Source: an uncultured Clostridia bacterium (GTDB taxonomy: Bacteria; Bacillota; Clostridia; Oscillospirales; CAG-272). Taken from it: DNA of 64,000 nucleotides. The DNA lies in NCBI GenBank assembly GCA_945929845.1, contig CAMEON010000004.1, positions 708 to 64,707 of the forward strand, in the 5' to 3' direction. This document shows, in pieces, positions 1,574-55,060 of this stretch; the first letter of the stretch is position 1; every line of letters begins with the position of its first letter. Below the pieces are notes generated by a model, which saw only the letters and a list, made by a program, of their open reading frames with translations, was not told the origin of the DNA and searched no databases. A program made the translations under genes and the position numbers.

Positions 1574-1890
1574 GTAGTACGGCGTAACAAATTAAACTCT
1601 ATTTTCTGATAGCCGATATCAGGATAAGGCAAAAAGACCTGTCGTAGGGCGGGGGCTTGCTCCCGCCGAAAGAACAATCCCTCCGTCACGCTTCGCTGAT
1701 GTAACGCCCTTTACACAAGGGAGGTTTTTATCGGGGTCTTCTCCGGCGGGAGCAAGCCCCCGCCCTACAAGGATGCTTGGAGCAACCTCAAATTGAATCA
1801 TTACAGTGTAGTAGGGGCGACATCCGTATACGGAGCCGTATACGGATGTGGTCGCCCTATTCCATGCGGGCGAGCGCAGTTCGCCTCTAC
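1574..1890 (-). repeat. REP/BIME-like mosaic repeat cluster, locus E1
   Basis: GTAGGGCGGGGGCTTGCTCCCGCC at 1644-1667 has an exact inverted partner at 1745-1768, giving 24-nt arms around a 77-nt core. Further GTAG-headed palindromic units lie at 1811-1857 (GTAGGGGCGACATCCGTATACGG...) and 1866-1890. The terminal unit GTAGTACGGCGTAACAA is at 1574. The same modules recur at 23687, 29175 and 54703. Confidence 0.85.
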
Positions 1891-2015
1891 AAAAATTACC
1901 AGGTGGAGCGGGTTCTATATCCGCCCGGAATGAACTGTATCTCCAGAGTGCCACAGTTCAGCCGTCCTATACATACAGTTTCTCTCCGTCCTTTGGCAGG
2001 ATGGCTACGGACAGA

Positions 2016-2243
2016 CTAAATCTGCTTATGCACGCTCTTGTACTCGTCGTAGTAACGGTAGTAGGGGCAACGGCCTGTCTGCCCGGCCACGAAGGCGGCC
2101 ATTTCGTCCTCGTCAAGAGACACCTGGCAGACATAGGCATCCACATCCTCATCATAGTCGTAGAACTCACAGTCCTCACACCGGGGGGCCGGATGCGTGC
2201 CTGCCTCCTTGTGCTTTTTCTGTACATTGGCACGGTTCTCCAT
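2016..2243 (-). CDS. small Cys-rich protein (DUF6472-like by recollection)
   Basis: 75 aa with GGAAGGAGG upstream of the ATG. The pattern CEDCEFYDYDEDVDAYVCQVSLDEDEMAAF...RCPYYRYYDEYK matches my memory of a conserved small clostridial family. Confidence 0.6.
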   Translation of the reverse strand: MENRANVQKKHKEAGTHPAPRCEDCEFYDYDEDVDAYVCQVSLDEDEMAAFVAGQTGRCPYYRYYDEYKSVHKQI

Positions 2244-2319
2244 GGACAGCCTCCTTCCATTTTGTCAGTCAGCCTATTGTACCACAGGAAAAGACGCTTG
2301 TCAAGATGCCGCCGGGGAC

Positions 2320-2348
2320 TTGCCAGAGAGACGGTTTTGTGGTATAAT
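2320..2348 (+). promoter_or_regulatory. sigma-A-type promoter (TTGCCA-17 nt-TATAAT)
   Basis: TTGCCA lies at 2320-2325, the spacer is 17 nt, and TATAAT lies at 2343-2348, preceded by TGTGG. It sits 37 nt upstream of the 2385 start. Confidence 0.6.
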
Positions 2349-2384
2349 AGGATTATTCTGTCTGCTGTAAGGAGTATACATACC

Positions 2385-3512
2385 ATGAATGATAAAGAAA
2401 TATCCGAGATCCGCCGGCATTTCAGGGCGGAGAGAAGCGGCATCTCCCGCATCCGGGGATGCTATGTCAATGAGAAGCGGGAGATCATCTCCGAGCTGGA
2501 TCAGTCCCTGGGACTGATGTCCGAGACCGAGGCGGAGGAGATCCTGTCCCTTCTCAAGAAGACGCTGTCCGGCCGGGTGGGCACCAACCTGCTGGACATA
2601 GCCTTTTCCACGAGCCAGGTGGCGGAGAGCGAGGAGTACAGGCTCCTGACCCGGCTGCGGGAAACTGCCCTGAAGGATGACCAGGCGGTGCATGCCTTTT
2701 TTGCAAAGGTCATACAGAGCCTGGAGATAGAAGGGAACTACATGATCCTGCTGGCTCACGACAGCTACGATGTATTCACCTACCGGAAGGACGGACATAG
2801 GTCAGAGGATGCGGGGGAGATGTTCAACTATATCCTTTGCACGGTCTGCCCGGTGAGGATGGCCAAGCCAGCCCTGAGCTACTATGTGCGGGAGAACTGC
2901 TTCCGCCATGTGACGGCGGACTCGGTGGTGGCCCCGCCGGCGTTGGGCTTCCTTTTCCCGGCCTTTGACGACCGCTGTACCAACCTGTACGGTGCTCTGT
3001 ACTACACCCGGAGCGTGGAGGACAGCCACACGGAATTTACCGATGCCATCTTCAAGGCAGGGCCCATGCCCATGCCTGCCGCCGAGCAGAAGGCCACCTT
3101 CCACACCGTGCTGGCTGATGCCGCCGGGGAGGCGTGCAGTCTGCCGGTGGTTCGGTCTGTCCGTGCCCAGCTATGCCAGGCCATTGAGGATCACAAGGCG
3201 GCCAAGGAGACGGAGCCGCTCACGGTGGACAAGTATGCCATCCGGGATATGCTGGGCTTCTGCGGTGTCCCGGAGGAGAACATCACCCATTTTGAGCAGG
3301 CGTTCGACGCCGGATTCGGCCCAGGAGCCGCCGTCAGCCCCCACAACCTGGTGGATGTCCGCCGCTTTGAGGTCAGGACGCCGGATGTCCGCATCACCGT
3401 AAACCCGGAAAAGACAGACCTGGTGGAGACCCGCATCATCGACGGTGTCCGCTATATTCTTATTCGGGCTGACGAGGGCGCAGAGGTCAACGGGGTGGAT
3501 GTGCGGTTTTGA
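2385..3512 (+). CDS. DUF4317 family protein
   Basis: Internal start is residue 180 of ORF 1848..3512, with AAGGAG 11 nt upstream. MNDKEISEIRRHFRAERSGISRIRGCYVNEKREII... is the N-terminal signature I associate with DUF4317. The upstream part of the ORF overlaps the repeat cluster and the opposite-strand gene. Confidence 0.7.
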   Translation: MNDKEISEIRRHFRAERSGISRIRGCYVNEKREIISELDQSLGLMSETEAEEILSLLKKTLSGRVGTNLLDIAFSTSQVAESEEYRLLTRLRETALKDDQAVHAFFAKVIQSLEIEGNYMILLAHDSYDVFTYRKDGHRSEDAGEMFNYILCTVCPVRMAKPALSYYVRENCFRHVTADSVVAPPALGFLFPAFDDRCTNLYGALYYTRSVEDSHTEFTDAIFKAGPMPMPAAEQKATFHTVLADAAGEACSLPVVRSVRAQLCQAIEDHKAAKETEPLTVDKYAIRDMLGFCGVPEENITHFEQAFDAGFGPGAAVSPHNLVDVRRFEVRTPDVRITVNPEKTDLVETRIIDGVRYILIRADEGAEVNGVDVRF

Positions 3513-3584
3513 ACTGTAGAACCCGGAACGTTTTTGCAAATAAACCCACGGCACCTATTGACAATTGGGTGCCGTTGTATTATA

Positions 3585-3746
3585 AGGAACCGCTGATTTA
3601 TTCGGCGGCACATCTTCGGCACATCTTTTCCCGCCTGCTTCTTGCCGAAAAACTCGATGTACATCCAGTACATCTTGAGTTTTTCGCAATCGCAGACGAA
3701 AAAATCTGTACCGAATCTGCACCACCTCATTAAATCAGCGTTTCCA
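3585..3746 (-). mobile_element. MITE-like element, family C, copy C1
   Basis: AGGAACCGCTGATTTATTCGG...CATTAAATCAGCGTTTCCA, with TA on both flanks (3583-84 and 3747-48). It is homologous over its full length to the copies at 9021, 29273 and 48866. Confidence 0.85.
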
Positions 3747-3845
3747 TAATGATGCGGAAGTTAGCGGACGCTAACCGGAGGCTGGCCGGTTTGATGCAAG
3801 GTGAATGGTCGGCAAATACTGATTGTCAGTAAGGAGGAAAAGGTC

Positions 3846-4100
3846 ATGGTCAGGATTACGGTGGATGTGGAAGGAATGGCGTGCGGGACGTGTGAAGCAC
3901 ATGTCAACGAGGCAGTCAGGAAGGTCTTCCCGGTGAAGAAGGTCACCTCGTCCCATAGCAAAGGGAGAACGGAGATTATCACAGAGGCACCCCTTGATGA
4001 GAACCAACTGAAGGATGCGATCCAGGCGACCGGGTATCAGGTACTGGGCATCCACACGGAGCCATACCAGAAAAAAGGCTTTTCGCTGTTCAGAAAATAA
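3846..4100 (+). CDS. heavy-metal-associated (HMA) domain protein, CopZ-like
   Basis: Start is residue 16 of ORF 3801..4100, right after AAGGAGG. MVRITVDVEGMACGTCEAHVNEAV carries the GMxCxxC metal-binding motif. Confidence 0.8.
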   Translation: MVRITVDVEGMACGTCEAHVNEAVRKVFPVKKVTSSHSKGRTEIITEAPLDENQLKDAIQATGYQVLGIHTEPYQKKGFSLFRK

Positions 4101-4203
4101 CAGGGGAACATACCCTGAGACATGGATGCCCCGCATATTTCTGTGATGGCCGGTCAGCAAGCTGCTTTCACGACATAGCAGGAAGATTATTTCAATAAAT
4201 CGG

Positions 4204-4232: not shown

Positions 4233-4298
4233 AGGCAAGGGCCGGTTGGTGTGGATGTGCCGGACCAGCCTACTTTATACTGTTGATCGGGTGATGAT

Positions 4299-5081
4299 AT
4301 GACAGCATATGCTATGTATGGAATTCTGATTCCTTTCCTGGGGACTGCGTTGGGTGCCGCCTGCGTCCTATTCATGAAAAAGACCATGAGCGACCATTTG
4401 CAAAGGGCTTTGTCCGGTTTTGCGGCCGGGGTCATGGTTTCGGCCTCTGTGGGGAGCCTTCTGATCCATGCTCTGGAGCAGGCGGGAGAGATGGGAGCCT
4501 GGTCCTTCCTGCCGGCGGCGGTGGGGTTCTGGGCCGGTATTCTGTTCCTGCTCCTCATGGACCGTCTGATCCCCCACCTGCACCGGAATGCACAGCAAGC
4601 CGAGGGGCCCAGGAGCCGGTTGCAGAAGACCACCATGCTGGTGCTGGCGGTCACATTGCATAACATTCCCGAGGGGATGGCGGTGGGCGTGGTGTACGCC
4701 GGGTACCTGACAGGGAACGGCAACATTTCCGCCATGGGTGCCCTGGCACTGTCCCTGGGTATCGCCATTCAGAATTTCCCCGAGGGAGCCATCATTTCTA
4801 TGCCGCTGAAGGCGGAGGGAATGAAAAAGTCCAGGGCTTTTTTCAACGGCGTCGCCTCCGGTATCGTGGAACCTGTCGGTGCCCTGATCACCATCGCCGC
4901 CGCCGGTTTCGTGATGCCTGCACTGCCGTACCTGCTCAGCTTTGCGGCGGGTGCCATGCTGTATGTGGTGGTGGAGGATCTGATTCCGGAGATGTCTGCG
5001 GGCAGTCACTCTAATGTGGGCACCATCTTCTTCGCCGTCGGCTTCAGCCTGATGATGATCCTGGATGTGGCTCTCGGATAA
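4299..5081 (+). CDS. ZIP family metal (zinc-type) transporter, copy 1
   Basis: 260 aa and multi-pass. HNIPEGMAVG and QNFPEGAIISMPL are the ZIP/ZupT-GufA-type signatures. Confidence 0.85.
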   Translation: MTAYAMYGILIPFLGTALGAACVLFMKKTMSDHLQRALSGFAAGVMVSASVGSLLIHALEQAGEMGAWSFLPAAVGFWAGILFLLLMDRLIPHLHRNAQQAEGPRSRLQKTTMLVLAVTLHNIPEGMAVGVVYAGYLTGNGNISAMGALALSLGIAIQNFPEGAIISMPLKAEGMKKSRAFFNGVASGIVEPVGALITIAAAGFVMPALPYLLSFAAGAMLYVVVEDLIPEMSAGSHSNVGTIFFAVGFSLMMILDVALG

Positions 5082-5219: not shown

Positions 5220-5285
5220 AGTGCGCTGGAACGGGCATTTGCATCGGCATGGTCGGTTCAATTCTTTTGAAACAGGTGTTCTGAT

Positions 5286-6068
5286 ATGGATTTATACTCT
5301 TTTTCGGGAATCATGATCTCTTTCCTTGGTACGGTACTGGGAGCCTCCTGTGTCCTGTTCATGAGAAAGAATCTAAGCGACCGCTTGCAAAGGATCCTTT
5401 CCGGCTTTGCAGCTGGGGTCATGGTGGCGGCCTCCATCTGGAGCCTGCTCATTCCTTCCCTTGAACAGTCTGAGGGGATGGGGAAGTGGGCGTTCGTCCC
5501 TGCGGCAGTCGGTTTCTGGGTCGGGATCCTGTTCCTCTTGCTGATGGATCATGTGATCCCTCACCTGCACAGGAACGCCCTGCAGGCAGAAGGGCCGAAG
5601 AGCCGGCTACAGAGGGACACCATGCTGGTGCTGGCGGTCACACTTCATAATATTCCGGAAGGCATGGCTATTGGCGTGGTGTACAGCGGATATCTTTCCG
5701 GGAATGCCAACATCTCGGCTATGGGTGCGCTGGCTCTGTCCATCGGTATCGCCATTCAGAATTTCCCGGAAGGTGCCATCATATCCATGCCGCTGAAAGC
5801 GGAGGGAATGAAGAAGTCCAAGGCTTTCCTGTACGGCGTGCTGTCCGGTGTGGTGGAACCCATCAGCGCATTGCTGACCATCGCCGCTACGGGCATCGTG
5901 ACACCCATCCTGCCGTACCTGCTCAGCTTTGCCGCAGGTGCTATGCTGTATGTGGTGGTGGAGGAACTGATCCCGGAAATGTCTGCGGGTCAGCATTCCA
6001 ATCTGGGCACCATCTTCTTCGCTGTCGGCTTCAGCGTTATGATGATCCTGGAAGTTCTGTTCGGATGA
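5286..6068 (+). CDS. ZIP family metal transporter, copy 2 (tandem paralog)
   Basis: Same 260-aa length as copy 1 and collinear with it without gaps. Most positions are identical by eye, and the HNIPEGMAIG and QNFPEGAIISMPL motifs are shared. Confidence 0.85.
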   Translation: MDLYSFSGIMISFLGTVLGASCVLFMRKNLSDRLQRILSGFAAGVMVAASIWSLLIPSLEQSEGMGKWAFVPAAVGFWVGILFLLLMDHVIPHLHRNALQAEGPKSRLQRDTMLVLAVTLHNIPEGMAIGVVYSGYLSGNANISAMGALALSIGIAIQNFPEGAIISMPLKAEGMKKSKAFLYGVLSGVVEPISALLTIAATGIVTPILPYLLSFAAGAMLYVVVEELIPEMSAGQHSNLGTIFFAVGFSVMMILEVLFG

Positions 6069-8808: not shown

Positions 8809-8844
8809 TGGGTTCCCGCCACCACAAGGGATCATATAACAACA

Positions 8845-8885
8845 CCCCCGCCCGTACCATTCCGGTACCCGGCGGGGGTTTTTCG
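8845..8885 (+). terminator. rho-independent terminator (hairpin copy 1 of 3)
   Basis: CCCCCGCCCGTACCATTCCGGTACCCGGCGGGGG is followed by TTTTT. It lies 37 nt after the rhamnosidase stop. Confidence 0.8.
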
Positions 8886-8994: not shown

Positions 8995-9020
8995 ATATAC
9001 CGAAGATGTTATTTTGCTTA

Positions 9021-9171
9021 GGGAAACGCTGATTTAATGAGGTGGTACAGATTCGGTACAGATTTTTTTGCCTGCGATTGCGAAAAACTCAAGATGTACT
9101 GGATGTACATCCAGTTTTTCGGAAAGAAGCAGGTGGGAAAAGATGTGCCGCCGAATAAATCAGCGGTTCCT
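9021..9171 (+). mobile_element. MITE-like element, family C, copy C2
   Basis: GGGAAACGCTGATTTAATGAGG...CCGAATAAATCAGCGGTTCCT, flanked by TA at 9019-20 and 9172-73. It lacks the 11-nt GAAGATGTGCC segment seen in C1 and C5. Confidence 0.85.
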
Positions 9172-9207
9172 TAAAAATTCTTGTGACAAGTCAAGGAGGG
9201 TATTCCC

Positions 9208-10257: not shown

Positions 10258-10300
10258 AAAACAGATCCCCCGCCCGTACCGTTTCGGTACCCGGCGGGGG
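10183..10300 (+). repeat. direct repeat DR-a (last 24 codons of the lipoprotein gene plus hairpin copy 2)
   Basis: It aligns by hand with 11831-11949 at roughly nine in ten positions. The hairpin CCCCCGCCCGTACCGTTTCGGTACCCGGCGGGGG at 10267-10300 has no T-tract here. Confidence 0.85.
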
Positions 10301-10385
10301 GTTCAACATAGGTGTCTGATGTTATTTGACCCAATCTTGTATATCATGTATAAATTAGGCATGAAGAATTTGTAAAAAGTGCGAA

Positions 10386-10414
10386 TTGCATATAGTTGTA
10401 TATTTGTGTATACT
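10386..10414 (+). promoter_or_regulatory. promoter of cassette 2 (TTGCAT-17 nt-TATACT)
   Basis: Same architecture and flanking sequence as 8966-8994 (AATTGTAAAAA..G.GAATTGCATA.AGT). Confidence 0.5.
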
Positions 10415-10545
10415 ATATGTTGTAATTGTTGGTAGTTCTATGTTGGTAAATATTGACAAAAGGAAGTGATACTAATGGCCTAATGTTTTATGATTTTGAA
10501 GAAAGAATATATCATTTGAACGGTATAAAGAAATTGGAGGTTATT

Positions 10546-11830: not shown

Positions 11831-11949
11831 GTGGAGTACCCCACGCTGGAGTGGTTGCTGTCCTTTGATGTGGCGGCCTATACACCCGGTGAGGTTTCCG
11901 CTTAAAGAATCAAGTCCCCCGCCCGTACCATTCCGGTACCCGGCGGGGG
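11831..11949 (+). repeat. direct repeat DR-b: promoterless 24-codon remnant of a lipoprotein paralog plus hairpin copy 3
   Basis: It translates VEYPTLEWLLSFDVAAYTPGEVSA*, against VESPTLEWLLSFDVAAYTPGEVDA* at the end of 9208..10257. It has no start codon and begins 11 nt after the AT-rich gene's stop. Confidence 0.85.
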
Positions 11950-11966
11950 TGTTTTTATTTCTTTTT
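11916..11966 (+). terminator. rho-independent terminator between convergent genes (hairpin copy 3)
   Basis: CCCCCGCCCGTACCATTCCGGTACCCGGCGGGGG is followed by TGTTTTTATTTCTTTTT. The T-tract overlaps the last plsY codons on the other strand. Confidence 0.7.
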
Positions 11967-18749: not shown

Positions 18750-18876
18750 GATGTATTTTCCTTTCTACAGAACTGTAAATGGTGAATCTATACATATTCT
18801 ACACCATTTTTGTCGGATTGTCAAGAGAAAGTGCGAATGTTGGCAGAACGGTCATGCAGGCGGAGCACAATATTTG

Positions 18877-19124
18877 CTACAGTTCAGGTGGGGGTACGGG
18901 ATGCGGTGGGGAACTTCTTGAAAGAAGTTCCCCACACCCCTCAAGAACTTTCAAAACAGGTATTGTGTATGATTCGAAGCGTTATTCTGTCATATATTTG
19001 TTGTCGTTTTTCCAAAGGAGCCAGCGTTGCTGATGCCCAAAACAGCAGAAACGCCTTCGCGGGGCCCCTCGCCCCGTTCTACGGCGGAAAAGGGAGCGCA
19101 CGGCGGGGGTAGGTGAACTGTAAC
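18877..19124 (+). repeat. family D repeat, copy D1
   Basis: It is bounded by CTACAGTTCA...TGAACTGTAAC and is collinear with the reverse complement of 37051-37300. Its internal hairpin GGGGAACTTCTTGAAAGAAGTTCCCC lies at 18908-18933. Confidence 0.85.
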
Positions 19125-23686: not shown

Positions 23687-23926
23687 GGGCGGATATGGAA
23701 TCTGCTCAAACTGTGTTCGTCTCCGTATACGGATGTCGCCCCTACTACACTGTAACGATTAAAACTTAACATTTATATTTGAGGTTGTTCCAAGCATCCT
23801 TGTAGGGCGGGGGCTTGCTCCCGCCGGAGAAGACCCCGATAAAACCTCCCTTGTGTAAAGAGCGTTACATCAGCGAAGCATGACGGAGTATCGGGAAATA
23901 AAGTTTCATTGGTTGCACCGTACTAC
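23687..23926 (+). repeat. REP/BIME-like mosaic repeat cluster, locus E2 (truncated)
   Basis: It has GGGCGGATATGGAAT..., CCGTATACGGATGTCGCCCCTAC (23723-23745), and a single GTAGGGCGGGGGCTTGCTCCCGCC at 23802-23825. The second inverted arm and about 70 nt are missing relative to E1, E3 and E4. Confidence 0.8.
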
Positions 23927-25152: not shown

Positions 25153-25518
25153 ATGGAGTGGCTGAAATATGTGTGGTCCTTTTTGGTGGGCGGGGCACTA
25201 TGCGTCGTTGCCCAAATCCTGATAGACAAAACCAAGCTGACCCCCGCCCGGATCCTGGTCGGGTATGTGACGGCGGGGGTGATCCTGGGGGCCATCGGCG
25301 TGTACCAGCCCCTGGTGGACTTCGCCGGGGCAGGGGCGGCCACGCCGCTGACCGGATTCGGCAACCTGATCGCCAAGGGCATCCGGAAGGCGGTGGATGA
25401 GCGGGGTCTGCTGGGTGTCCTGACCGGCGGCCTGACAGCGGCGGCAGGCGGGACAGCGGCGGCGCTGGTCTTCGGCTACCTGGCGGCACTGATCTGGCGG
25501 GGGAAGCCCAAGGGGTAA
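25153..25518 (+). CDS. spoVAE: stage V sporulation protein AE (SpoVAEB-type)
   Basis: 121 aa. MEWLKYVWSFLVGGALCVVAQILIDKTKLTPARILV...PLTGFGNLIAKG matches SpoVAE. Confidence 0.85.
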   Translation: MEWLKYVWSFLVGGALCVVAQILIDKTKLTPARILVGYVTAGVILGAIGVYQPLVDFAGAGAATPLTGFGNLIAKGIRKAVDERGLLGVLTGGLTAAAGGTAAALVFGYLAALIWRGKPKG

Positions 25519-25658
25519 GGGAACCACTGATTGATTCGGCGGCGCATCTTCGGCACATCTTTTCCCGTCTGCTTCTTGCCGAAAAAAGCGTTTTTCGCAA
25601 TCGCAGACTAAAAAAATCTGTACAGAATCTGCACCACCTCATTCAATCAGTGTTTCCC
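25519..25658 (-). mobile_element. MITE-like element, family C, copy C3 (internally deleted)
   Basis: GGGAACCACTGATTGATTCGG...CATTCAATCAGTGTTTCCC, flanked by TAA on both sides. About 28 nt of the central palindrome region is missing. Confidence 0.8.
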
Positions 25659-25662
25659 TAAG

Positions 25663-26388
25663 CTATGAGTACCTTCTGGGGGAGGATACCTTGATGCCAA
25701 AGCCCTCCCGGAGCTTGTCGATGGCGGCCTTCTCAATGCGGCTGACATAGGAGCGGGAGATGCCAAGCAGGGCGGCGATCTCCCGCTGTGTCATGGCGGG
25801 GGTGTCGCCAAGGCCAAAGCGCAGGAGAATGACCTGCTGTTCCCGGGGATCCAGACGGCTGTGGATCATGTGCATAGCCCGCTCCGCCTCCACCTTGCGG
25901 AAAATCTCCTCGGTGATGCACTCCTCCGAGCTGATGACATCCATGTATGTCAGGGGGTTGCCGTCCCTGTCCACATCTATCGTGTCGTTCAGGGACACCT
26001 CGCCGCAGGTCTTTTTCTGTGCCCGGAAGTACATAAGGATCTCGTTCTGAATACATTTGGCCCCGTAGGTGGCAAAACGGGTGCCAGCCTCCGGCTTGAA
26101 GGTGTCCACCGCCTTGCACAGACCGATGGTGCCGATGGATACCAGATCCTCCTGATTCCGGCTGGAGGCATAGTATTTGCGGACGATATGGGACACAAGC
26201 CGCAGGTTGTGGAGGATGAGCTTCTGCCGGGCCTCCTCGCGGACGGCGGGATCCGGGTGGTTCCGGGACAGGCGGAAGGCCTGCTCTTCCTCCGCACTGT
26301 CCAGGGGCGGGGGAAAATTCTGAGCCGTACCTACGCCCAGGATCAGGTGAAACAGACGGGTGATAGGGGAAAGAAGCAATCCGAACAT
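25663..26388 (-). CDS. sigK: sporulation sigma factor, pro-sigma-K type
   Basis: A short hydrophobic pro-sequence is followed by NFPPPLDSAEEE. GTRFATYGAKCIQNEILMYFR and TQREIAALLGISRSYVSRIEK resemble SigK more than SigE (ISQSYISRLEK) as I recall them. The gene is not interrupted. Confidence 0.7.
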   Translation of the reverse strand: MFGLLLSPITRLFHLILGVGTAQNFPPPLDSAEEEQAFRLSRNHPDPAVREEARQKLILHNLRLVSHIVRKYYASSRNQEDLVSIGTIGLCKAVDTFKPEAGTRFATYGAKCIQNEILMYFRAQKKTCGEVSLNDTIDVDRDGNPLTYMDVISSEECITEEIFRKVEAERAMHMIHSRLDPREQQVILLRFGLGDTPAMTQREIAALLGISRSYVSRIEKAAIDKLREGFGIKVSSPRRYS

Positions 26389-28008: not shown

Positions 28009-28146
28009 ATGAGATGCGCCACCTTTGGGCAGTATGAATACACTTCTTCGGTTGATTTTTCCGCTTGAAGGTTAAGACAACTTGCCGAATGATATCTGTA
28101 CTTTTTTCAAAAAGCTGATATAATTGAAGTACGATCGATCGGAAAA

Positions 28147-28944
28147 ATGAAAAGGAGAACAGAACGAAAGATGAAAACCTTAGGTGAAAGAATAGCTGAG
28201 CTTCGTAAAGAAAGGAATATGACACAGGAGGGACTGGCAAGCACGATCGGCATTTCGGCACAGGCGATTTCTAAATGGGAAAATAATGTTACCATGCCGG
28301 ATATCACACTTCTTCCTCTCATTGCGGATGTTTTCGAAGTCACGATAGATGAGCTGTTTTCGATCACATCAAAGCCGCACAAGCATCCCGTCAATATTGA
28401 AGAAATACCGTCGTTCGTCTATGATGAAACCATCATCAATATGTGGGGACGAGAATACGATGATTACGCTGAAAAGGTAAAGGAACAATTCAAAAAGAAT
28501 CCTGAACTAAGTACAGGGTTTGTTTCGGAGGAAGCGGGTGCAGTTTATGGAGAGAAAGATTTGGCTTTGGTTTATCTCCCGAGCGCAGAGGAGTCTCTTA
28601 AACTTCTGGATGACGAAAAAGCGGCAAAATTCCTACAGGTACTTTCAGATAGGAATGTAAGAATGCTACTCAAATATCAGCTCCAGCAATGTGCGCATGC
28701 ATTTACTGCCGCATCAGCATCAACCCAAACAGGAATATCGGAAACGGATGCAAAGGAAGCACTGGAGAAACTTACCGGTTACAACCTGACTTTTGCGCAG
28801 GATGTGGATGTGGGAGCGGGCGAAAAACTGCGCGTTTACCAAGTATTTGCCATATACAAAATGCCGCTTCTTGTTTATCCTCTACTCACGCTTGCAAAAA
28901 AGCTCTCGGATTTCAGAGACAGCTGGTATGGGTTCCGGGGATAG
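28147..28944 (+). CDS. XRE-family helix-turn-helix transcriptional regulator with an uncharacterised C-terminal domain
   Basis: LGERIAELRKERNMTQEGLASTIGISAQAISKWENNVTMPDITLLPLIADVF is HTH_3 type. The start could instead be residue 9 (28171). Confidence 0.8.
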   Translation: MKRRTERKMKTLGERIAELRKERNMTQEGLASTIGISAQAISKWENNVTMPDITLLPLIADVFEVTIDELFSITSKPHKHPVNIEEIPSFVYDETIINMWGREYDDYAEKVKEQFKKNPELSTGFVSEEAGAVYGEKDLALVYLPSAEESLKLLDDEKAAKFLQVLSDRNVRMLLKYQLQQCAHAFTAASASTQTGISETDAKEALEKLTGYNLTFAQDVDVGAGEKLRVYQVFAIYKMPLLVYPLLTLAKKLSDFRDSWYGFRG

Positions 28945-29000
28945 TACAGACAAAAATGAAAAGTGATCCATTCTCCCGGATGTGAACCCGGGAGATCAGG

Positions 29001-29058
29001 GTGAGTATCAGAGAAAAGTAGAGTAGCACTCTGTTTTTCTTCTGATGCTCACTTTTTG
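29001..29058 (+). terminator. rho-independent terminator after the XRE gene
   Basis: A long imperfect hairpin, GTGAGTATCAGAGAAAAG...TTTTTCTTCTGATGCTCAC, has the inner hairpin AGAGTAGCACTCT and is followed by TTTTT. Confidence 0.65.
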
Positions 29059-29174
29059 CAATATATGACGGAATCACGCTCTGAACAGCATCTGATAGAT
29101 GTTTTGAGAACGCATTCAGTTACAGTACGGGTTTAACAATCGTTGGGGTTATGTTCCGTACAGGTTTAACAACT

Positions 29175-29656
29175 GTAGGGGCGACCGCCGTATACGGATG
29201 TGGTCGCTTTGTTCAATGCGGGCGAACACAGTTCGCCCCTACTACACTGTAACGATTAAAATTTTACATTTAAGAAAACGCTGATTGAATGAGGTGGTAC
29301 AGATTCGGTGCGGATTTTTTCGTCTGCGATTGCGAAAAACTCAAGATGTACTGGATGTACATCGAATTTTTCGGCAAGAAGCAGGCGGGAAAAGATGTGC
29401 CGAAGATGGCCACCGAATAAATCAGCGGTTCCTTAAATTTGAGGTTGATCCAAGCATCCTTGTAGGGCGGGGGCTTGCTCCCGCCGGAGAAGACCCCGAT
29501 AAAAACCTCCCTTGTGTAAAGGGCGTTACATCAGCGAAGCGTGACGGAGGGATTGTTCTTTCGGCGGGAGCAAGCCCCCGCCCTACGACAGATCATTTTG
29601 CCTTATCCTGATATCGGCTATCAGGAAATAAAGTTTAACTTGTTACGCCGTACTAC
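29175..29656 (+). repeat. REP/BIME-like mosaic repeat cluster, locus E3 (carries the nested element C4)
   Basis: Units are GTAGGGGCGACCGCCGTATACGGATGTGGTCGC at 29175 and GCGGGCGAACACAGTTCGCCCCTAC at 29218-29242. The 24-nt inverted arms lie at 29462-29485 and 29563-29586. The terminal ...CGCCGTACTAC ends at 29656. Confidence 0.85.
29273..29433 (+). mobile_element. MITE-like element, family C, copy C4, inserted inside E3
   Basis: AGAAAACGCTGATTGAATGAGG...CCGAATAAATCAGCGGTTCCT, with TA at 29271-72 and 29434-35. Confidence 0.85.
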
Positions 29657-29700
29657 CATTATTGGGGTAGGTTCCATATCCTCCCGAAATGCAAAGTATT

Positions 29701-29732
29701 ACACATGAAGCATGAGGTCATGTGTTTTTTTT
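29701..29732 (+). terminator. orphan rho-independent terminator
   Basis: ACACATGA-agcatgagg-TCATGTGT is followed by TTTTTTT. There is no plus-strand CDS between it and the XRE terminator. Confidence 0.6.
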
Positions 29733-29799
29733 CATTGGCCTCCCAGCTGAGCTGTAACCGCATTCACATCCACACTCTGTGAAACTTTTCGCTTCTGCC

Positions 29800-36856: not shown

Positions 36857-37050
36857 GGGTGTAGGATTCCTTTCTGTTTTGCAATCGTGCAGACTTTGGT
36901 CTGACAAGAAAAATTCCCCTATAGTATAACATAAAAGGGAGTGATTGTGCAACAGCCTTTTACGACAAAATTACAGGCTCTGTCAGCGCATCAAACGGTG
37001 AAATTGCCGGGCTTGACATCCGTAACTCCATTTACGGACTGAACTGTACA

Positions 37051-37300
37051 TTACAGTTCACCTACTTCCCAAGAGGACGCTCCCTTTTCCTCCTTAGAGC
37101 GGGGCGAGGGGTCCCCGCGAAGGCGTTTCATCTGTTTTGGGCAACAGTTATGCTGTCTCCCCTGGAACAATGAATGACAAAAATAACATCAAACAACGCA
37201 TCGAACATAAATATATACACATTTTGAAAGTTCTTGGGGGTCTGGGGGCTTCTTTCAAGAAGCCCCCAGGCGTTCTCCCGTACCCCACCTGAACTGTAAC
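37051..37300 (-). repeat. family D repeat, copy D2
   Basis: TTACAGTTCACCTAC...CCACCTGAACTGTAAC. The reverse complement is collinear with D1. The internal hairpin GGGGGCTTCTTTCAAGAAGCCCCC lies at 37244-37267. Confidence 0.85.
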
Positions 37301-48537: not shown

Positions 48538-48726
48538 GTGAATGTAAAGAAAAGGATGGTCACTGAAATGCAGAACCAGCAGAATCAGAACAGAAACAAC
48601 CAGAATCAGAACCAGCAGAAGCAGAATCAGAATCAGCAGAACCAGAATCAGCAGGATCAACAGAACCAGAACAGAAACAACCAGAACCAGAGCAGACAGC
48701 AGCAGAGACAGTCCGAGGAGGACTGA
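48538..48726 (+). CDS. possible Gln/Asn-repeat microprotein (start uncertain)
   Basis: 62-aa ORF with the sequence ...MQNQQNQNRNNQNQNQQKQNQNQQNQNQQDQQNQNRNNQNQSRQQQRQSEED, built from CAGAAY units. Candidate ATGs are at 48556 and 48568. The RBS is weak. Coding status is uncertain. Confidence 0.35.
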   Translation: MNVKKRMVTEMQNQQNQNRNNQNQNQQKQNQNQQNQNQQDQQNQNRNNQNQSRQQQRQSEED

Positions 48727-48865
48727 CCCCGCCGTATAGCCGGGTTGCCGTGTGACCGAATCCTCCGGCACGGCTTGCCGTAGGGAAAGCGGTCACGGGT
48801 AAAAAGGGCTGGTGCACTCCGGTGCGCCAGCCTCTGCCTCTGACAGAGGGAAAGATCACATTTTA

Positions 48866-49027
48866 GGGAAACACTGACTTAATGAGGTGGTACAGATTCG
48901 GTACAGATTTTTTCGTCTGCGATTGCGAAAAACTCAAGATGTACTGGATGTACATCGAGTTTTTCGGCAAGAAGCAGGCGGGAAAAGATGTGCCGAAGAT
49001 GTGCCGCCGAATAAATCAGCGGTTCCC
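48866..49027 (+). mobile_element. MITE-like element, family C, copy C5
   Basis: GGGAAACACTGACTTAATGAGG...CCGAATAAATCAGCGGTTCCC, with TA at 48864-65 and 49028-29. It ends 34-46 nt upstream of the pcrA start. Confidence 0.85.
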
Positions 49028-49072
49028 TAGACAGATACAACAGACGAATACCAGAAAGGAATGGCCATACAT

Positions 49073-51544: not shown

Positions 51545-51600
51545 ACAGATGGTAGCCGGTAGCCGGTAGCCGGTAATTGATAACCGGACAGTTGGACATA

Positions 51601-51650: not shown

Positions 51651-51653
51651 CCT

Positions 51654-52733
51654 TTAATGGGCGTACTTCAGGAAGCGGAAGGGGCGGTGCCGCTCCAGCA
51701 GGGTGAAGACACCGTACGCCGCAAGGCAGACAGCCAGCGTGATCAGAACGGTCACAGCCCGGTGCCAGTCTTCACCCGCTGGGAACAGGCGGCGGAGCAG
51801 AGCGTCCACCACCGTGATCACAGAGGCGTGAAGACAGAAGATCACGGTACTCAGCCGCCGGAGCGTCCCGGTCAGGCGGGGGCCGGACATACAGGCCGGC
51901 CACGGCATATCCCGGAGCAGGGGGAAGGACAGGGCGCACAGCGGTACCAGGCTGACATAGAAATTCCGTGCCGCGGCCCCGCCGATGCTGTCCACCAGGT
52001 ACTTTTCTCCCACGAGAAGCCCCACGCACAGCCCGGTGAGTATCAGACGGACGACCAGCCGTCCGACCGGGCGGGAGCCGGGGGCTTTTTTGGCTCTCCC
52101 GGCCAGCCAGCGCCCCAGCGCCACCCAGAAAAGGGCTTCCGGAAAGCTGTTGGCAAAGGTGCCGAAGATGGACAGATACCCCTGGTACAGCCGGATCAGC
52201 CAGCCACAGTCGGCGATCAGGCCGTAGTAATTATGGAAGAGACAGCAGAGCAGGTAAGCGGGCAGGGTGAGCAGGAGCACCGCCCAGGCAGGTAGCCTGA
52301 CAGAGAGCAGGTACACAATGACCATCCCCAGACAGAGGGCGGACAGGAACCAAGAGGAGCGGAAGGTGCTCCCGAACAGCAGATCCCGGATCAGGTGCCA
52401 CACCCCCGTACCCACCCCGGCACTCAGGTAATCCCGGATGGCCAGGGTGAGGGGCAGGAGCAGGATGAACCAGAACAGGTACAGCCGCCCGGAGCGCAGA
52501 AGAAATTTGCCCAGTGCCGCCCGGCGTTCCTTCCCGTCCAACTGCCCGGCTCGGCTCCAGAAAAAGTAGGAGGACATGACAAAGAACAGCGGGACGGCGC
52601 ACCACAGGATGACAGGCGGCTCCCCCTGCCACAGGTCAGCATGGATGCAGACAATGGCAAGGGACAGGATCAGCTTCAGCCAATCCAGGGAGGCGTATGT
52701 TTTGGCTTCCCCCGCATCGGTTGCACGGGGCAT
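51654..52733 (-). CDS. acyltransferase family 3 membrane protein
   Basis: Start is residue 39 of ORF 51654..52847, after AAAGGAGG. YASLDWLKLILSLAIVCIH and about 10 TM segments are typical of acyltransferase_3. Confidence 0.7.
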   Translation of the reverse strand: MPRATDAGEAKTYASLDWLKLILSLAIVCIHADLWQGEPPVILWCAVPLFFVMSSYFFWSRAGQLDGKERRAALGKFLLRSGRLYLFWFILLLPLTLAIRDYLSAGVGTGVWHLIRDLLFGSTFRSSWFLSALCLGMVIVYLLSVRLPAWAVLLLTLPAYLLCCLFHNYYGLIADCGWLIRLYQGYLSIFGTFANSFPEALFWVALGRWLAGRAKKAPGSRPVGRLVVRLILTGLCVGLLVGEKYLVDSIGGAAARNFYVSLVPLCALSFPLLRDMPWPACMSGPRLTGTLRRLSTVIFCLHASVITVVDALLRRLFPAGEDWHRAVTVLITLAVCLAAYGVFTLLERHRPFRFLKYAH

Positions 52734-52789
52734 GGGTACCTCCTTTCCCGTCACGGTGACGAGGGGGTATTGACATTGAAGGCGTACTT

Positions 52790-53407
52790 TCACGCTTTCC
52801 TGACCGGAACAGGCTTCCTCTGCCGCGCGCCAGCCCACAACAAACACAGCGTGCCGGAGAAAACAGCCGGGATCAGCAAGTACACATACTTGGCACCGGT
52901 GTACACCTTTTCAAGGAAGGGAAATAGGGCAAACAGGTTGATGCCATCGCCTGGAAGCCATCCGAACAGGTCGAAGTACCGCCATTGCATATACTCACAC
53001 GAAGGAAAGCGCAGGCGGATCAGTTCGGGCGAGGCAACCAGGAGAATCGCCCAGTAGACAACGGAGAGCAACGCACACAGACTCATCACCCCGTACAGAA
53101 TGCGGAACAGCCGGGGCTTTTGCTCCTTCCGGTAGGCAAAGGCGGTGCAGATCAGGGACAGTGCCGCCATTCCCACAAACAGAAGGATCAGGGGGAGAAA
53201 CGGGGCAAGGGACGGCCAGATCAGCGAGGGGTCAACCGCCAGGTAGTACCCGCCCTCGTCGGAGACCATCAATACACAGGAGCAGGCTTTTACCGTATCG
53301 AATAACAGCTTCCCGTAAGAATAGCCGAAAAGCAGGCAGAACGCCGACAGGGCGGTGGACAGCACCCGATGGATGCGCCGCAAGCGGTGTCCCTCCAGTA
53401 CCAGCAT
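52790..53407 (-). CDS. membrane protein, unknown function
   Basis: 205 aa and about 5 TM segments. It starts 4 nt after the oxidoreductase stop on the same strand. Confidence 0.55.
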   Translation of the reverse strand: MLVLEGHRLRRIHRVLSTALSAFCLLFGYSYGKLLFDTVKACSCVLMVSDEGGYYLAVDPSLIWPSLAPFLPLILLFVGMAALSLICTAFAYRKEQKPRLFRILYGVMSLCALLSVVYWAILLVASPELIRLRFPSCEYMQWRYFDLFGWLPGDGINLFALFPFLEKVYTGAKYVYLLIPAVFSGTLCLLWAGARQRKPVPVRKA

Positions 53408-53411
53408 ATGC

Positions 53412-54500
53412 TTACCAGTCCAGGCTGACCTCGGCGTGAGCGTCCGAGGAGTCGTAGATGGCCTGCATCATGCGGGCGGTGATGATGACCTTGTCGATGT
53501 GGGAGGGCAAAACCTCGCCGGTGCGGACACAGCGGACGAAGGAGTCGATCTCATTCTGGAACATATTGACGCTCTCGAACTGGGGGGTGTCCTGCCACAG
53601 CTTGCCGTCCTTCACACCGTAGATGGTGAAGTTGCCGCCATACTGGAGGCGGATACCGGCCTTGTCGCCCAGGAAATCAATGTAAGTCTCGCTGACACCG
53701 ATGTTCTGCGCCCAGGCACCGTTGAGGCTGATGGTGGGGCCGTACACGCCGGGGGCGGTCTGGGTGCGCACCAGCCCGGTCACGCTGTCGTCCACATCGT
53801 AGGTGCCGTTCAGATCCTTGGTGTTCTCCGACCACATACCCTCATATACATAGTTGGGCATATCCACACCCAGCTTACAGTAGGCCTGTCCGGACACCGT
53901 GACCGGCTTGGGATCCCCGGTACAGTACATGACGATGTCCAGGTAGTGGACGCCCCAGTCAATGAGGGCACCGCCCCCGGCGATCTCCTTGGTGGTGAAG
54001 GCACCGCCAAGCCCGGGAATGGCGCGGTGCGCACGGAAGGACACATACACATGGTACACCTCACCCAGCGCACCGGCGGCGATCAGGTCATGGATCTTAT
54101 TGACAGCCGTGTTGAAACGGTTGACCACACCGATGTTGAGCACCTTGCCGGTCTCGTGCTGAACCTTCTGCATCTCCCGTGCCTCGGCATAGGTGCGGGC
54201 AGCCGGCTTTTCGCACAGCACATGCTTGCCAGCCCGCAGGGCATCCATGGCAATGATGGGGTGCATCTTGTTGGGGGTGCAGACCGACACTGCCTCTACC
54301 TCCGGGTCATTGATGACCTGGTGATAGTCCGTGACGGCCACGCCGCACCCGTACTTGTTCACGGCCTCCTCGGCCCGCTCCGGGATGATGTCGCAGAAAT
54401 ACTTGATGACCACATCCGGGTTGTTCATGTAGCTGGGAATATGGGCGGCATTGGCGATACAGCCACAACCGATGACGCCGACAGTAACCTTCTTATCCAT
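53412..54500 (-). CDS. Gfo/Idh/MocA family oxidoreductase
   Basis: Start is residue 45 of ORF 53412..54632, after AAGGAG. The product reads MDKKVTVGVIGCGCIANAAHIPSY...LRAGKHVLCEKP. Confidence 0.85.
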   Translation of the reverse strand: MDKKVTVGVIGCGCIANAAHIPSYMNNPDVVIKYFCDIIPERAEEAVNKYGCGVAVTDYHQVINDPEVEAVSVCTPNKMHPIIAMDALRAGKHVLCEKPAARTYAEAREMQKVQHETGKVLNIGVVNRFNTAVNKIHDLIAAGALGEVYHVYVSFRAHRAIPGLGGAFTTKEIAGGGALIDWGVHYLDIVMYCTGDPKPVTVSGQAYCKLGVDMPNYVYEGMWSENTKDLNGTYDVDDSVTGLVRTQTAPGVYGPTISLNGAWAQNIGVSETYIDFLGDKAGIRLQYGGNFTIYGVKDGKLWQDTPQFESVNMFQNEIDSFVRCVRTGEVLPSHIDKVIITARMMQAIYDSSDAHAEVSLDW

Positions 54501-54551
54501 ACAGAAAAGACGCTCCTTATGTATCAGAATATGCCCCTGGGGGCTACCACC

Positions 54552-54580
54552 ATTATATAATATCTTCTCCGGAAAGTCAA
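54552..54580 (-). promoter_or_regulatory. sigma-A-type promoter (TTGACT-17 nt-TATAAT)
   Basis: The reverse strand reads CCTTGACTTTCCGGAGAAGATATTATATAATGG. Confidence 0.6.
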
Positions 54581-54702
54581 GGCAAAAGTAGATTTTTTCG
54601 GGAAAAAGGGGTGGGGCTGGGTTACAGTTCATCTAGGGGCTTGTGAAAAAATCGCATAACCTCATCTCTCATATATGTATATATATATAATGTTTTTATT
54701 TC

Positions 54703-54947
54703 GGGCGGATATGGAATCCGCCCCTACTACTAGAAGTTGATCCAAGCATCCTTGTAGGGCGGGGGCTTGCTCCCGCCGGAGAAGACCCCGATAAAAACCT
54801 CCCTTGTGTAAAGGGCGTTACATCAGCGAAGCGTGACGGAGGGATTGTTCTTTCGGCGGGAGCAAGCCCCCGCCCTACGACAGATCATTTTGCCTTATCC
54901 TGATATCGGCTATCAGGAAATAAAGTTTAATTGTTACGCCGTACTAC
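54703..54947 (+). repeat. REP/BIME-like mosaic repeat cluster, locus E4
   Basis: GGGCGGATATGGAATCCGCCCCTAC lies at 54703-54727. The 24-nt inverted arms lie at 54754-54777 and 54855-54878. The terminal ...CGCCGTACTAC ends at 54947. Confidence 0.85.
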
Positions 54948-55034
54948 GGAGTTACGGGAATGCCCCTAAAAAATACGGAGAGCCATTTCCCATCCACATC
55001 CTTCCAAGTTAAATATACGAACTCACCTTTTTTC

Positions 55035-55060
55035 GTAGGGGCGGATTCCATATCCGCCCG
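55035..55060 (+). repeat. isolated GTAG-headed palindromic unit
   Basis: GTAGGGGCGGATTCCATATCCGCCC is the exact inverted partner of 54703-54727, so the two bracket about 300 bp including E4. Confidence 0.8.

Follow-up and report, generated by a model that had tools for sequence, protein, structure and literature searches.

GTAG-headed REP-like hairpins in gut Clostridia, probably linked to RAYT-type transposases and carried in one genomic window by copies of a composite element

Our results make it probable that GTAG-headed hairpins constitute a REP family common to an order of gut Clostridia and are the cognate DNA of RAYT-type HUH single-tyrosine transposases. Four types of these GC hairpins occur, in mosaic order, at four intergenic loci of the window, the 64-kb stretch of DNA from an uncultured Clostridia bacterium that was analysed here. 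Judged by sequence, the window units are REPs: each short GC palindrome is headed by GTAG, and the units are extragenic and arranged in inverted doublets. The REP/RAYT reading of the preliminary description stands in this respect, and gains from the presence of an identical type I unit inside RAYT genes of other Clostridia, and in two stretches also beside them; it has to be narrowed for the window itself, where every unit belongs to one of four copies of a composite element, and at least one of these copies moved in the manner of a TIR-type MITE.

The loci E1 (1574-1941), E2 (23687-23926), E3 (29175-29758) and E4 (54621-55124) lie between genes that are all supported by Pfam. Divergent gene pairs flank three of the four, unlike the REP/BIME elements of E. 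coli; classical REPs are found preferentially at gene 3' ends. All units of the window sit within four copies of one composite, ordered as TIR, type IV, II/III doublet, linker, type I doublet with a 77-nt core, type IV and TIR, and a pattern search of the 64 kb found no solo units outside these loci. The commonest unit, type I (GTAGGGCGGGGGCTTGCTCCCGCC), has seven exact copies in the window against zero expected by chance, and GTAGRGGCG has seven matches against 1.0 expected. In DNA folding, every unit forms a GTAG-headed hairpin of -7.5 to -19 kcal/mol. The units first described were all recovered in place, as were the perfect 24-nt inverted type I pairs around the 77-nt core, present at three of the four loci as exact matches with the first arm on the plus and the second on the minus strand (1644-1667/1745-1768, with heads outward, in E1; 29462-29485/29563-29586 in E3; 54754-54777/54855-54878 in E4). 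The core is a copy of another, different short repeat. Likewise, when oriented by the shared flank CTACTACACTGTAAYGATT (n = 3), the II+III doublet points in opposite directions in E1 and E3, and the alignment places the shared composite end at exactly CCGTACTAC in every copy.

In E1, a family A copy (1574-1797, minus strand), comprising the type I doublet, the 77-nt core, conserved flanks and a terminal GTAGTACGG, aligns as a 96% inverted match to 29433-29659. Beyond it lie a type II unit (1811-1858, plus; -19.2 kcal/mol, z = -7.2), in which the GTAG head precedes a long hairpin with a CCGTATACGG palindrome, a type III unit identified by pattern match (GTAGAGGCGAACTGCGCTCGCCCGC, 1866-1890, minus), a degenerate type IV unit that has three mismatches and is headed by GTGG (1903-1927, plus) and, at the edge, a TIR-like terminus (GATACAGTTCA, 1931-1941, minus). 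E2 contains a degenerate type IV unit with two mismatches (23687-23707, minus), a fused remnant of types III and II (23713-23745, minus) and a family A copy (23773-23926, plus; alignment and strain comparison) with one exact type I unit (23802-23825, plus), its second arm having been lost in a 69-nt deletion at 23888/23889 that is private to the window strain. Four other strains (L218-L221) retain sequence that is missing from the window here: L219 has the complete doublet and L218 the second arm, and the L220 and L221 sequences start inside the element. The M16-spoVAD spacer measures 528 nt in the window versus 168 nt, without units, in the nearest genus-level relatives. E3 starts with a short form of type II (29175-29211, plus) and a type III unit (GTAGGGGCGAACTGTGTTCGCCC, 29218-29242, minus) whose identical sequence is present in other genomes, followed by a 167-nt family B MITE unrelated to the GTAG units and inserted into the linker (29269-29435, plus), an aligned family A copy (29433-29656, plus), a decayed type IV unit read directly from the sequence (GTAGGTTCCATATCCTCCCG, 29667-29686, plus) and a TIR-like terminus (GTTACAGCTCA, 29748-29758, minus) 10 nt inside a strain indel boundary at 29768. 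The degenerate type IV units, the loss of the E2 arm, the MITE in E3 and the TIR-like ends of the loci are additions to the preliminary description.

Among the matches listed, at least 120 stretches contain the exact 24-mer GTAGGGCGGGGGCTTGCTCCCGCC; they come from about 100 species, mostly Oscillospirales, and the flanks of the unit are unrelated from stretch to stretch. With type I masked, GTAG stands directly 5' of 96 of the 701 strict GC hairpins in the listed loci, the next tetranucleotide being found at 15. The GT[AG]G hairpins of these loci fall into 183 distinct sequences, whose stems show compensatory changes; the type III and type IV units of the window are represented exactly. Doublets in the listed loci are heads-out in 69 cases and heads-in in 19, spacers of 20-27 nt are the commonest, and long open frames hold 52 of 290 units versus 79% of the bases.

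No Y1 transposase ORF was found in the 64-kb window, as the preliminary description had remarked; RAYT-like Y1 transposase ORFs are present in eight of the at least 120 stretches listed. Like E. coli RayT (TnpAREP, YafM; PDB 4ER8), which they match at E = 5e-8, their products are Y1 HUH proteins, with 4ER8 (TnpArep) as the best solved structure. They score 53-70 bits against NCBIfam REP_Tyr_transpos, under the curated cutoff (70 vs 80), and up to 38 bits against Pfam Y1_Tnp. The HUH and Y---NP motifs are invariant, and Q, H and R align with the E. coli residues at the GTAG-contacting positions (positions as given in PMC6006769). Within the RAYT gene, the type I unit occurs twice, inverted and in frame, encoding VGRGLAPA and AGASPRPT; the doublet, heads-out with 137-155 nt between its arms, surrounds the segment encoding the HUH motif, and in two stretches (L108 and L104) units also flank the gene. 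The two in-gene arms co-evolve: they occur as matched pairs (VGRGLAPA/AGASPRPT, VGQGLAPA/AGASPCPT, VGEGLAPP/GGASPSPT, VGDGLPVP/GTGNPSPT), and their reverse complementarity is consistent in 46 of 57 diverse homologues against a null of 13.4 +/- 3.0, a count reached by 0 of 5000 shuffles. The RAYT is a single-copy gene amid housekeeping genes. Around three RAYT loci picked regardless of REPs, 15-20 kb of sequence held no dispersed units, and RAYT carriage therefore does not imply many REPs.

The E4 copy inserted as a TIR-bounded MITE. The 504-nt insert (54621-55124, plus) ends in GTTACAGTTCA and TGAACAGTAAC, TIR-like sequences inverted at 10 of 11 positions (54621-54631 and 55114-55124), between two copies of the 7-nt direct repeat GGGCTGG (54614-54620 and 55125-55131) that represent the target duplication. 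It contains an aligned family A copy (54733-54947, plus) and two type IV units, one identified by pattern match and folding (GTAGGGGCGGATTCCATATCCGCCC, 54703-54727, minus) and the other its exact inverted partner (55035-55060, plus); in agreement with the original observation, the segments 54702-54727 and 55035-55060, which lie 307 nt apart, show 100% complementarity along all 26 nt. Among the strain differences envisaged earlier (presence, absence or inversion), presence and absence were found for E4, which is missing from six same-species contigs that show empty sites, alongside the private arm deletion of E2. Terminal inverted repeats, target duplication and empty sites together indicate that E4, the only composite copy with a reconstructable insertion, moved as a TIR-type MITE and not by a RAYT; its ends and duplication are a signature of DDE-type MITEs, not of Y1 transposition. 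The 11-nt termini are common to a separate MITE family: two independent elements of about 250 nt are bounded by E4-type termini with 7-8-nt duplications, and one such terminus each is kept in E1 and in E3. Two further MITE families occur in the window. The later changes to the composite include doublet inversion, the 69-nt arm deletion, unit decay and MITE insertion.

These observations, together with the lack of solo units and of a Y1 gene in the window, lend some weight to a possible but rather unlikely alternative, namely that all four loci are copies of a composite TIR-type MITE mobilised by a DDE transposase in trans, and that the GTAG hairpins are fossils, acquired earlier or by transfer, in a genome with no active RAYT. 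Passive passengers fit poorly, however, with the type I arms, which are identical in all seven copies while the flanks differ (0/48 versus 13/88 variable columns, p = 0.004), suggesting constraint on the arms or their homogenisation. In addition, E1 and E3 carry the II/III doublet in opposite orientations with the CTAC junction intact, which fits events at the level of the doublet, and identical units disperse independently in other genomes.

It seems highly improbable that the clusters are conserved because they encode or shape an RNA (a small RNA, a 5' UTR structure or a terminator). On both strands, the 125-nt module does fold, at -44.7 kcal/mol with z about -9, and E2 is probably transcribed, as a conserved promoter-like segment lies on one side of it and the spoVAD start on the other. 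However, the one weak Rfam match, RF02662, scores 27.6 bits where the gathering score is 61, nearly all from the long stem, and no Rfam family attains its threshold; type I, III and IV units are not followed by a T-run, orientation to neighbouring genes varies among loci, conservation across genomes is limited to the 24-nt unit and excludes spacer and flanks, and most strains are without E4. We give barely any credence to the doublets being decayed fragments of RAYT genes, left by an internal deletion, as opposed to mobile or functional units, since the heads-out pairs inside RAYT genes and a tblastn match of a RAYT query to the window doublets are offset by the extent of that match (confined to the two arms, with 39% identity in 64 columns, about 20 of them gaps, and a window segment of 132 nt), by the absence of further RAYT-like sequence in the window or in 112 listed non-RAYT stretches, by spacers that are unrelated between genomes and mostly of 20-27 nt, and by the origin of the 77-nt core in a different repeat.

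The preferred reading, a REP family with cognate RAYTs, finds its closest parallels in known systems. As in E. coli REP/BIME, a 5' GTAG directly precedes a short GC-rich imperfect palindrome, and the units are extragenic, form inverted pairs and combine several types in mosaics. In contrast to that system, the units belong to a spore-forming Clostridium-class host, and the unit has 24 nt and an 8-bp stem, where that of E. coli has about 35 nt and a bulge. The 24-nt unit also lies in frame within the transposase gene, and among the matches listed it is identical in about 100 species and not genus-specific. TnpAREP subclass 2.4 (Quentin et al., 2018, PMC6006769), the equivalent of group 4 of the RAYTs in Bertels et al. 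(2017, PMC5581495), also carries REPs inside the tnpAREP gene without breaking the frame and a variable repeated insert after the HUH motif (PMC6006769), here one to three tandem copies of the AGASPRPT module; as described there, it also has no C-terminal extension, is patchy across phyla and has low REP copy numbers. This likeness follows the published description. The subclass is reported as abundant in Cyanobacteria, Bacteroidetes, Chlorobia and Caldilineae, and Clostridia are not named for it (PMC6006769, PMC5581495); the HUH-to-Y distance is about 63 residues in the common Clostridia form versus a median of 88 reported there, and the parts of these papers that were searched contain no mention of two fixed sites whose arms co-vary. 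Pseudomonas REPINs with group 3 RAYTs (Bertels and Rainey, 2011, PMC3116915) similarly pair two inverted REPs, separated by some tens of nucleotides, in a long hairpin; there too the doublet is the repeated unit and the RAYT a single-copy gene among housekeeping genes. REPINs, however, number hundreds per genome and flank the RAYT (PMC3116915), unlike the three Clostridia RAYT surroundings, and window doublets occur only within the larger composite. E4 in turn resembles TIR-type MITEs of Firmicutes and other bacteria (RUP, BOX, Correia, ERIC-type) in its TIRs, 7-nt target duplication, non-coding nature and presence or absence among strains, but its interior consists of GTAG-headed units and doublets common to unrelated genomes and not of a deleted IS copy.

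By analogy with E. coli TnpAREP, the top strand as ssDNA would fold into an 8-bp GC stem, retaining in type I a G-T wobble that the bottom strand would be unable to form; the RAYT would bind the unpaired 5' GTAG together with the stem, and would cleave and rejoin nearby, spreading single units and heads-out doublets. A RAYT presumably acts on units of the window type, and one may be encoded in the source genome. Because the window units all lie in four related composites, the window provides no evidence for single-unit transposition in this genome. The identity of the 24-mer across so many species probably reflects its double role in coding for protein and serving as a DNA site. Subclass 2.4 already provides examples of REPs inside RAYT genes (PMC6006769). 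The surveys consulted include no GTAG REPs in Firmicutes (PMC3733652) and give only group 1 RAYTs for Clostridia (PMC5581495), in keeping with the early remark that no such system was known to have been characterised in this class. Taken together, our findings would extend the mostly proteobacterial REP/RAYT system to gut Clostridia.

The preliminary description had placed GTAG-headed, GC-rich palindromic units at four loci of the window, and counts bear this out: the type I 24-mer GTAGGGCGGGGGCTTGCTCCCGCC is found in 7 exact copies where chance predicts 0, and GTAGRGGCG occurs 7 times against 1.0 expected. About 17 units are present in these 64 kb of the genome, all of them inside four clusters, namely E1 (1574-1941), E2 (23687-23926), E3 (29175-29758) and E4 (54621-55124); classical REPs are dispersed through one genome at high copy number, typically more than 100. 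With permissive settings 362 hairpins were called in the window, too noisy a result to use, and strict criteria replaced them. An unpaired GT[AG]G tetranucleotide stands at the 5' foot of the stem in all window units, which measure 23-26 nt with an 8-bp stem, type II being longer. When folded as single-stranded DNA, the units leave GTAG unpaired and form the 8-bp stem at -7.5 to -9.7 kcal/mol, with type II reaching -19 kcal/mol. The two strands of type I are not equivalent, since the top strand reads as a G-T wobble and the bottom strand as an A-C mismatch; consistent with the mismatch, the folded stem of the bottom strand is just 6 bp long.

The window mosaics mix types I to IV, with inverted pairs in a REPIN/BIME-like arrangement, and the specific configurations proposed beforehand were all recovered. 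E1, E3 and E4 each hold heads-out type I pairs around a 77-nt core of identical length; the doublet (inverted unit pair) of types II and III is flipped in E1 relative to E3, with the shared junction CTAC|TACACTGTAA unchanged; and the type IV units at 54702-54727 and 55035-55060 are perfectly complementary over 26 nt. The type I doublet, its core and the conserved flanks make up family A (about 225-227 nt), which is 96-97% identical between loci and closes with exactly CCGTACTAC in every copy. Aligned across the family A copies, the flanks vary at 13 of 88 columns and the type I arms at 0 of 48 (p = 0.004), suggesting constraint on the arms or their homogenisation. The 77-nt core holds a second short repeat, consisting of ACAATCCCTC, a variable hairpin and CTCCCTTTACACAAGGGAG (1681-1728 in the window), which also occurs in stretches of unrelated Clostridia genomes (L028, L082 and, in two copies, L033).

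All four loci are intergenic, with Pfam-supported genes on both sides: E1 is flanked by ychF and a DUF4317 gene, E2 by the gene of an M16 peptidase and spoVAD, E3 by the genes of an XRE-type regulator and a MoxR ATPase, and E4 by a gene for a Gfo/Idh/MocA oxidoreductase and an unknown gene. The host is a spore-forming member of the Clostridia: SpoVAD is encoded in the window, as is a sigma factor (regions 2 and 4) adjoining spoVA genes, and same-species contigs carry CotJ genes; the GC content is ~58%. Other features of the window concern its genes. At ~540-560 on the minus strand, ychF shows an apparent frameshift, the GTPase N-terminal part stopping at 537 and the conserved C-terminal YchF part lying in another frame; an assembly error might account for this, or the gene may be a pseudogene. 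Tandem paralogue pairs are found at 55923-56222 and 56725-57024 (88%) and at 4295-4594 and 5282-5581 (71%), compared over 300 nt, and the number of paralogues in the E4 neighbourhood varies among strains. A tandem repeat with a 15-nt period (CAGAACCAGCAGAAT-like) at 48570-48711 falls within an open frame, where it is read as low-complexity sequence with many E, P and Q residues. A 44-nt GC hairpin without a GTAG head (CCCCCGCCCGTACC...GGTACCCGGCGGGGG) occurs three times (8840-8883, 10262-10305 and 11911-11954), and Ts after two of the three copies give it a terminator-like look.

Every unit of the window falls in one of four related composites, whose plan reads TIR, type IV (minus), II/III doublet, linker, family A, type IV (plus), TIR. 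E4 is a complete TIR-to-TIR copy without the II/III doublet, E1 and E3 retain one terminus each (1931-1941 and 29748-29758, respectively), and in E2 just the left part survives, in degenerate form. The window has 11 occurrences of the terminus GTTACWGTTCA, where 0.85 are expected; the transposase of the MITE would be a DDE enzyme with ends reading GTTACAGTTCA. The E4 insert (54621-55124, 504 nt) is bordered on both sides by the direct repeat GGGCTGG, and its termini match at 10 of 11 positions. At this site four contigs of the same species are empty and two carry another allele without the insert, which is present in the window and in one further contig (L227). Given the empty sites, the GGGCTGG duplication and the matching termini, E4 arrived as a TIR-type MITE; it is the only one of the four loci at which TIRs, a target duplication and an empty site in relatives are all found. 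Each cluster in this genome is a copy of one composite, and this composite has spread as a TIR-type MITE on at least one occasion.

Two other MITE families are present in the window. Family C comprises independent elements of ~250 nt at 18876-19124 and 37050-37300, which have the same termini as E4 (GYTACAGTTCA) and target duplications of 8 and 7 nt, respectively; inside each copy lies a hairpin that shows compensatory changes, and a GTAG-like hairpin is found close to one end. Family B (~167 nt) has imperfect TIRs, TTAGGGAAACGCTGATT ... AATCAGCGGTTCCTTA, and unrelated flanks, with five copies in 64 kb: 3583-3749 (-), 9016-9176 (+), 25518-25668 (-), 29269-29435 (+) and 48856-49029 (+). One of its copies sits inside the E3 mosaic, and same-species contigs carry family B too.

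The contigs used for comparison share 95-99% nucleotide identity with the window; the ENA assemblies ERZ28573803, ERZ27233209, ERZ27233312 and ERZ28563661 include contigs of this species. They were reached via the 90% SpoVAD cluster, which includes an NCBI entry labelled 'Eubacteriales bacterium', and via the Gfo/Idh/MocA protein; exact-protein look-ups with SpoVAD (two alternative starts), MoxR and DUF4317 gave no match. These contigs show that the clusters are polymorphic within the species, as the comparison of strains suggested in the preliminary description might reveal: differences were found at E2 and E3 as well as at E4. At E2, 69 nt are deleted in the window at 23888/23889, and as 4/4 other strains retain sequence from this segment, the deletion is confined to the strain of the window; a second type I arm is seen there in two contigs (L218 and L219), one of which (L219) has the complete doublet. 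At E3, 28050-29768, spanning the XRE gene and the whole cluster, is missing in L218 and present in L219, and no obvious repeat is seen at the junctions of this 1.7-kb absence. Across ~110 kb of same-species contigs our finder located units at the E2 and E3 sites only, and L227 ends inside the E4 type IV unit.

Two other classifications were considered for these elements. Assignment of the 125-nt inverted-arm module to a known RNA family, which had been named as a refuting outcome, fails: across the window, Rfam 15 covariance models gave nothing above the gathering threshold but a tRNA, and the best match of the module, RF02662, scores 27.6 bits against a threshold of 61 and reflects a generic long stem. 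Derivation from an IS200/IS605 element (a PATE) was rejected as well, in that E4 has TIRs and a target duplication, and the associated RAYT-like proteins of other genomes (REP-associated Y1 HUH transposases) match the IS200 model weakly, at 21 bits versus 70 for the RAYT model.

A scan for the 24-mer, with one genome per species, returned at least 120 stretches, with ~100 species among the matches listed. Nearly all of these hosts are Oscillospiraceae, Acutalibacteraceae, Ruminococcus (including R. albus 8), Sporobacter termitidis, Faecousia and similar MAGs. The flanks are unrelated between stretches, and therefore it is the unit itself that is conserved; in blastn, the window showed no similarity to the 120 stretches listed beyond short units, which makes family A private to this lineage. 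The 24-mer is also seen in an Alphaproteobacteria MAG (L015), a Bifidobacteriaceae bin (L054) and 15 IMG/VR viral contigs (L123-L137), and this presence outside the Clostridia may stem from contaminated bins, from prophages or from genuine transfer. A search of one literature library for the 24-mer or its peptides found no occurrence.

With type I masked, 96 of the 701 strict GC hairpins in the listed stretches carry GTAG at the 5' foot, the next tetranucleotide accounting for 15. The same stretches hold 183 distinct GT[AG]G-headed hairpins, many with paired stem changes, and the window's type III and type IV units recur there unchanged. Neighbouring units lie heads-out in 69 cases versus 19 heads-in and 50 direct, with spacers mostly of 20-27 nt, and 18% of the units fall inside long open frames versus 79% of all bases. 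The units disperse independently in many genomes. Their distribution is patchy: at 80 loci picked by SpoVAD homology alone (695 kb; genus-level relatives with 49-74% SpoVAD identity from a metagenome scan, used as an unbiased control) GTAG hairpins were not enriched, and the M16-spoVAD spacer measures 168 nt without units in the nearest genus-level relatives versus 528 nt in the window.

The window itself contains no Y1 ORF, in agreement with the preliminary description, which had reported no RAYT gene there. When E. coli RayT, followed by a profile built from the first matches, was searched against all open frames of the listed stretches, RAYT-like ORFs were found in 8 of the at least 120. 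Their products score 53-70 bits with the NCBIfam model NF047646 (REP-associated tyrosine transposase; cutoff 80) and 38, 24.5 and 21.5 bits with Pfam Y1_Tnp (cutoff 23), one protein giving no match, and their nearest solved structure is E. coli TnpAREP (4ER8). In an alignment of 27 sequences, no change is seen at H84, H86, Y149 or N153 and hardly any at P154, corresponding to the HUH + Y---NP signature of class 2, and the residues aligned with the GTAG-contacting Q, H and R of E. coli (PMC6006769) are identical to them. The family is large: one protein collection yields 2,458 clusters at E <= 1e-5 and another 2,709 representatives at 50% identity (E <= 1e-30); some of its members are named 'REP element-mobilizing transposase RayT' at JGI and 'hypothetical protein [Clostridia / Ruminococcaceae]' at NCBI.

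In all 8 of these stretches, among those listed, the unit lies inside or flanks the RAYT gene. Within RAYT genes the type I unit is present twice, inverted and in frame: at site 1, before helix A, GTAGGGCGGGGGCTTGCTCCCGCC is read as VGRGLAPA, and at site 2, directly after the HUH motif, its complement is read as AGASPRPT, the two copies starting 161-179 nt apart. Other arrangements also occur. In one stretch (L108) inverted type I units flank the gene instead; in another (L104, 5256-5447) five head-to-tail type I units with a 42-nt period and near-identical spacers lie beside a RAYT gene that carries the variant unit GTAGGGCGGGGGTTTACTCCCGCC. The latter belongs to the Faecousia MAG JAZQDL01, which has units on two further contigs (L036 and L098). 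Around three RAYT genes picked independently of REPs, no dispersed units were found in the surrounding 15-20 kb.

The two in-gene sites also carry other palindromes. One stretch (L114) has a different palindrome at both sites, and the variant peptide pairs VGQGLAPA/AGASPCPT, VGEGLAPP/GGASPSPT and VGDGLPVP/GTGNPSPT are exactly what reverse-complementary DNA predicts. Among 57 representatives with less than 50% mutual identity, the third residue of site 1 and the sixth of site 2 are consistent with complementarity in 46, compared with 13.4 +/- 3.0 for shuffled pairings, and 0 of 5000 shuffles reached 46. This peptide comparison shows that the embedded arms co-evolve. In some genes the site 2 module is present in two or three tandem copies; such in-frame modules, composed of the REP arm and the next ~18 codons, follow the HUH motif in P0022, P0045, P0046 and other proteins of the family, and in the stretch L236 at 10315-10455.

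With respect to known systems, cyanobacterial proteins of this kind have an N-terminal RLKxYDYS...FVTICT motif and '...APT' segments after HUH, as here. Because these motifs are shared, the Clostridia RAYT family probably belongs to subclass 2.4. Subclass 2.4 corresponds to RAYT group 4, characterised by in-frame REPs in tnpAREP genes and a variable repeated insert after HUH, and is reported to be common in Cyanobacteria and Bacteroidetes, with a scattered occurrence in other groups (PMC6006769, PMC5581495). The HUH-to-Y distance differs, the reported median for the subclass being 88 residues, whereas it is ~63 here. At three RAYT loci on long contigs the gene is single-copy with housekeeping neighbours, and one such gene (P0065) lies on contigs of three samples with the same neighbours, in likeness to what is described for domesticated RAYTs (PMC5581495). 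For Clostridia, only group 1 RAYTs, without association to canonical REPs, were reported (PMC5581495), and the catalogue of GTAG REPs covers Proteobacteria, Cyanobacteria, Chloroflexi and the PVC group, Firmicutes not being included (PMC3733652).

The observation is real, and the interpretation of the units as REP sequences is essentially right. The units have REP anatomy, and in other genomes they are linked to RAYT genes. The reading needs one correction for this genome, in that the window clusters are copies of a composite and E4 moved as a TIR-type MITE. By analogy with E. coli TnpAREP (PMC3479197, PMC8266576), the RAYT would bind the top-strand hairpin together with its GTAG head on single-stranded DNA, and would then cut and rejoin nearby, producing units and doublets. 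That these 24 bases serve at once as coding sequence and as DNA site would, we infer, explain why the 24-mer is identical across the order.

These observations allow us to put forward, tentatively and as a somewhat doubtful proposal, that the RAYT gene holds the master copy of the repeat, the dual-use 24-mer being frozen order-wide and the dispersed units being occasional offshoots, some of them spread by MITEs. The doublet would bracket the HUH-coding segment and be read in frame as VGxGxxxP and GxxxPxPT, and the complementarity of its arms would be maintained by selection or gene conversion. Serving as both protein code and the enzyme's own DNA site would freeze the repeat across the whole order, whereas ordinary REPs turn over within genera. 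Some offshoot units would have been captured and spread by unrelated TIR-type MITEs, as in the window.

Work on REPs and RAYTs has so far been almost entirely proteobacterial. From sequence comparison, our analysis shows that a REP family with its putative cognate RAYT is widely distributed among gut Clostridia of the Oscillospirales type, and its standout feature is one unit that is identical across an order and locked into a transposase reading frame. The 24-mer and its in-frame peptides provide a sequence handle for finding such elements in metagenomes, for explaining contig breaks and spurious small ORFs arising from them, and for testing the co-evolution of a domesticated transposase and its repeat. 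With its co-varying arms, the in-gene doublet lends itself well to studying whether a RAYT gene seeds repeats. The E4 polymorphism shows that other mobile elements, too, can carry REP units along as cargo, which matters wherever REP counts serve to infer RAYT activity.
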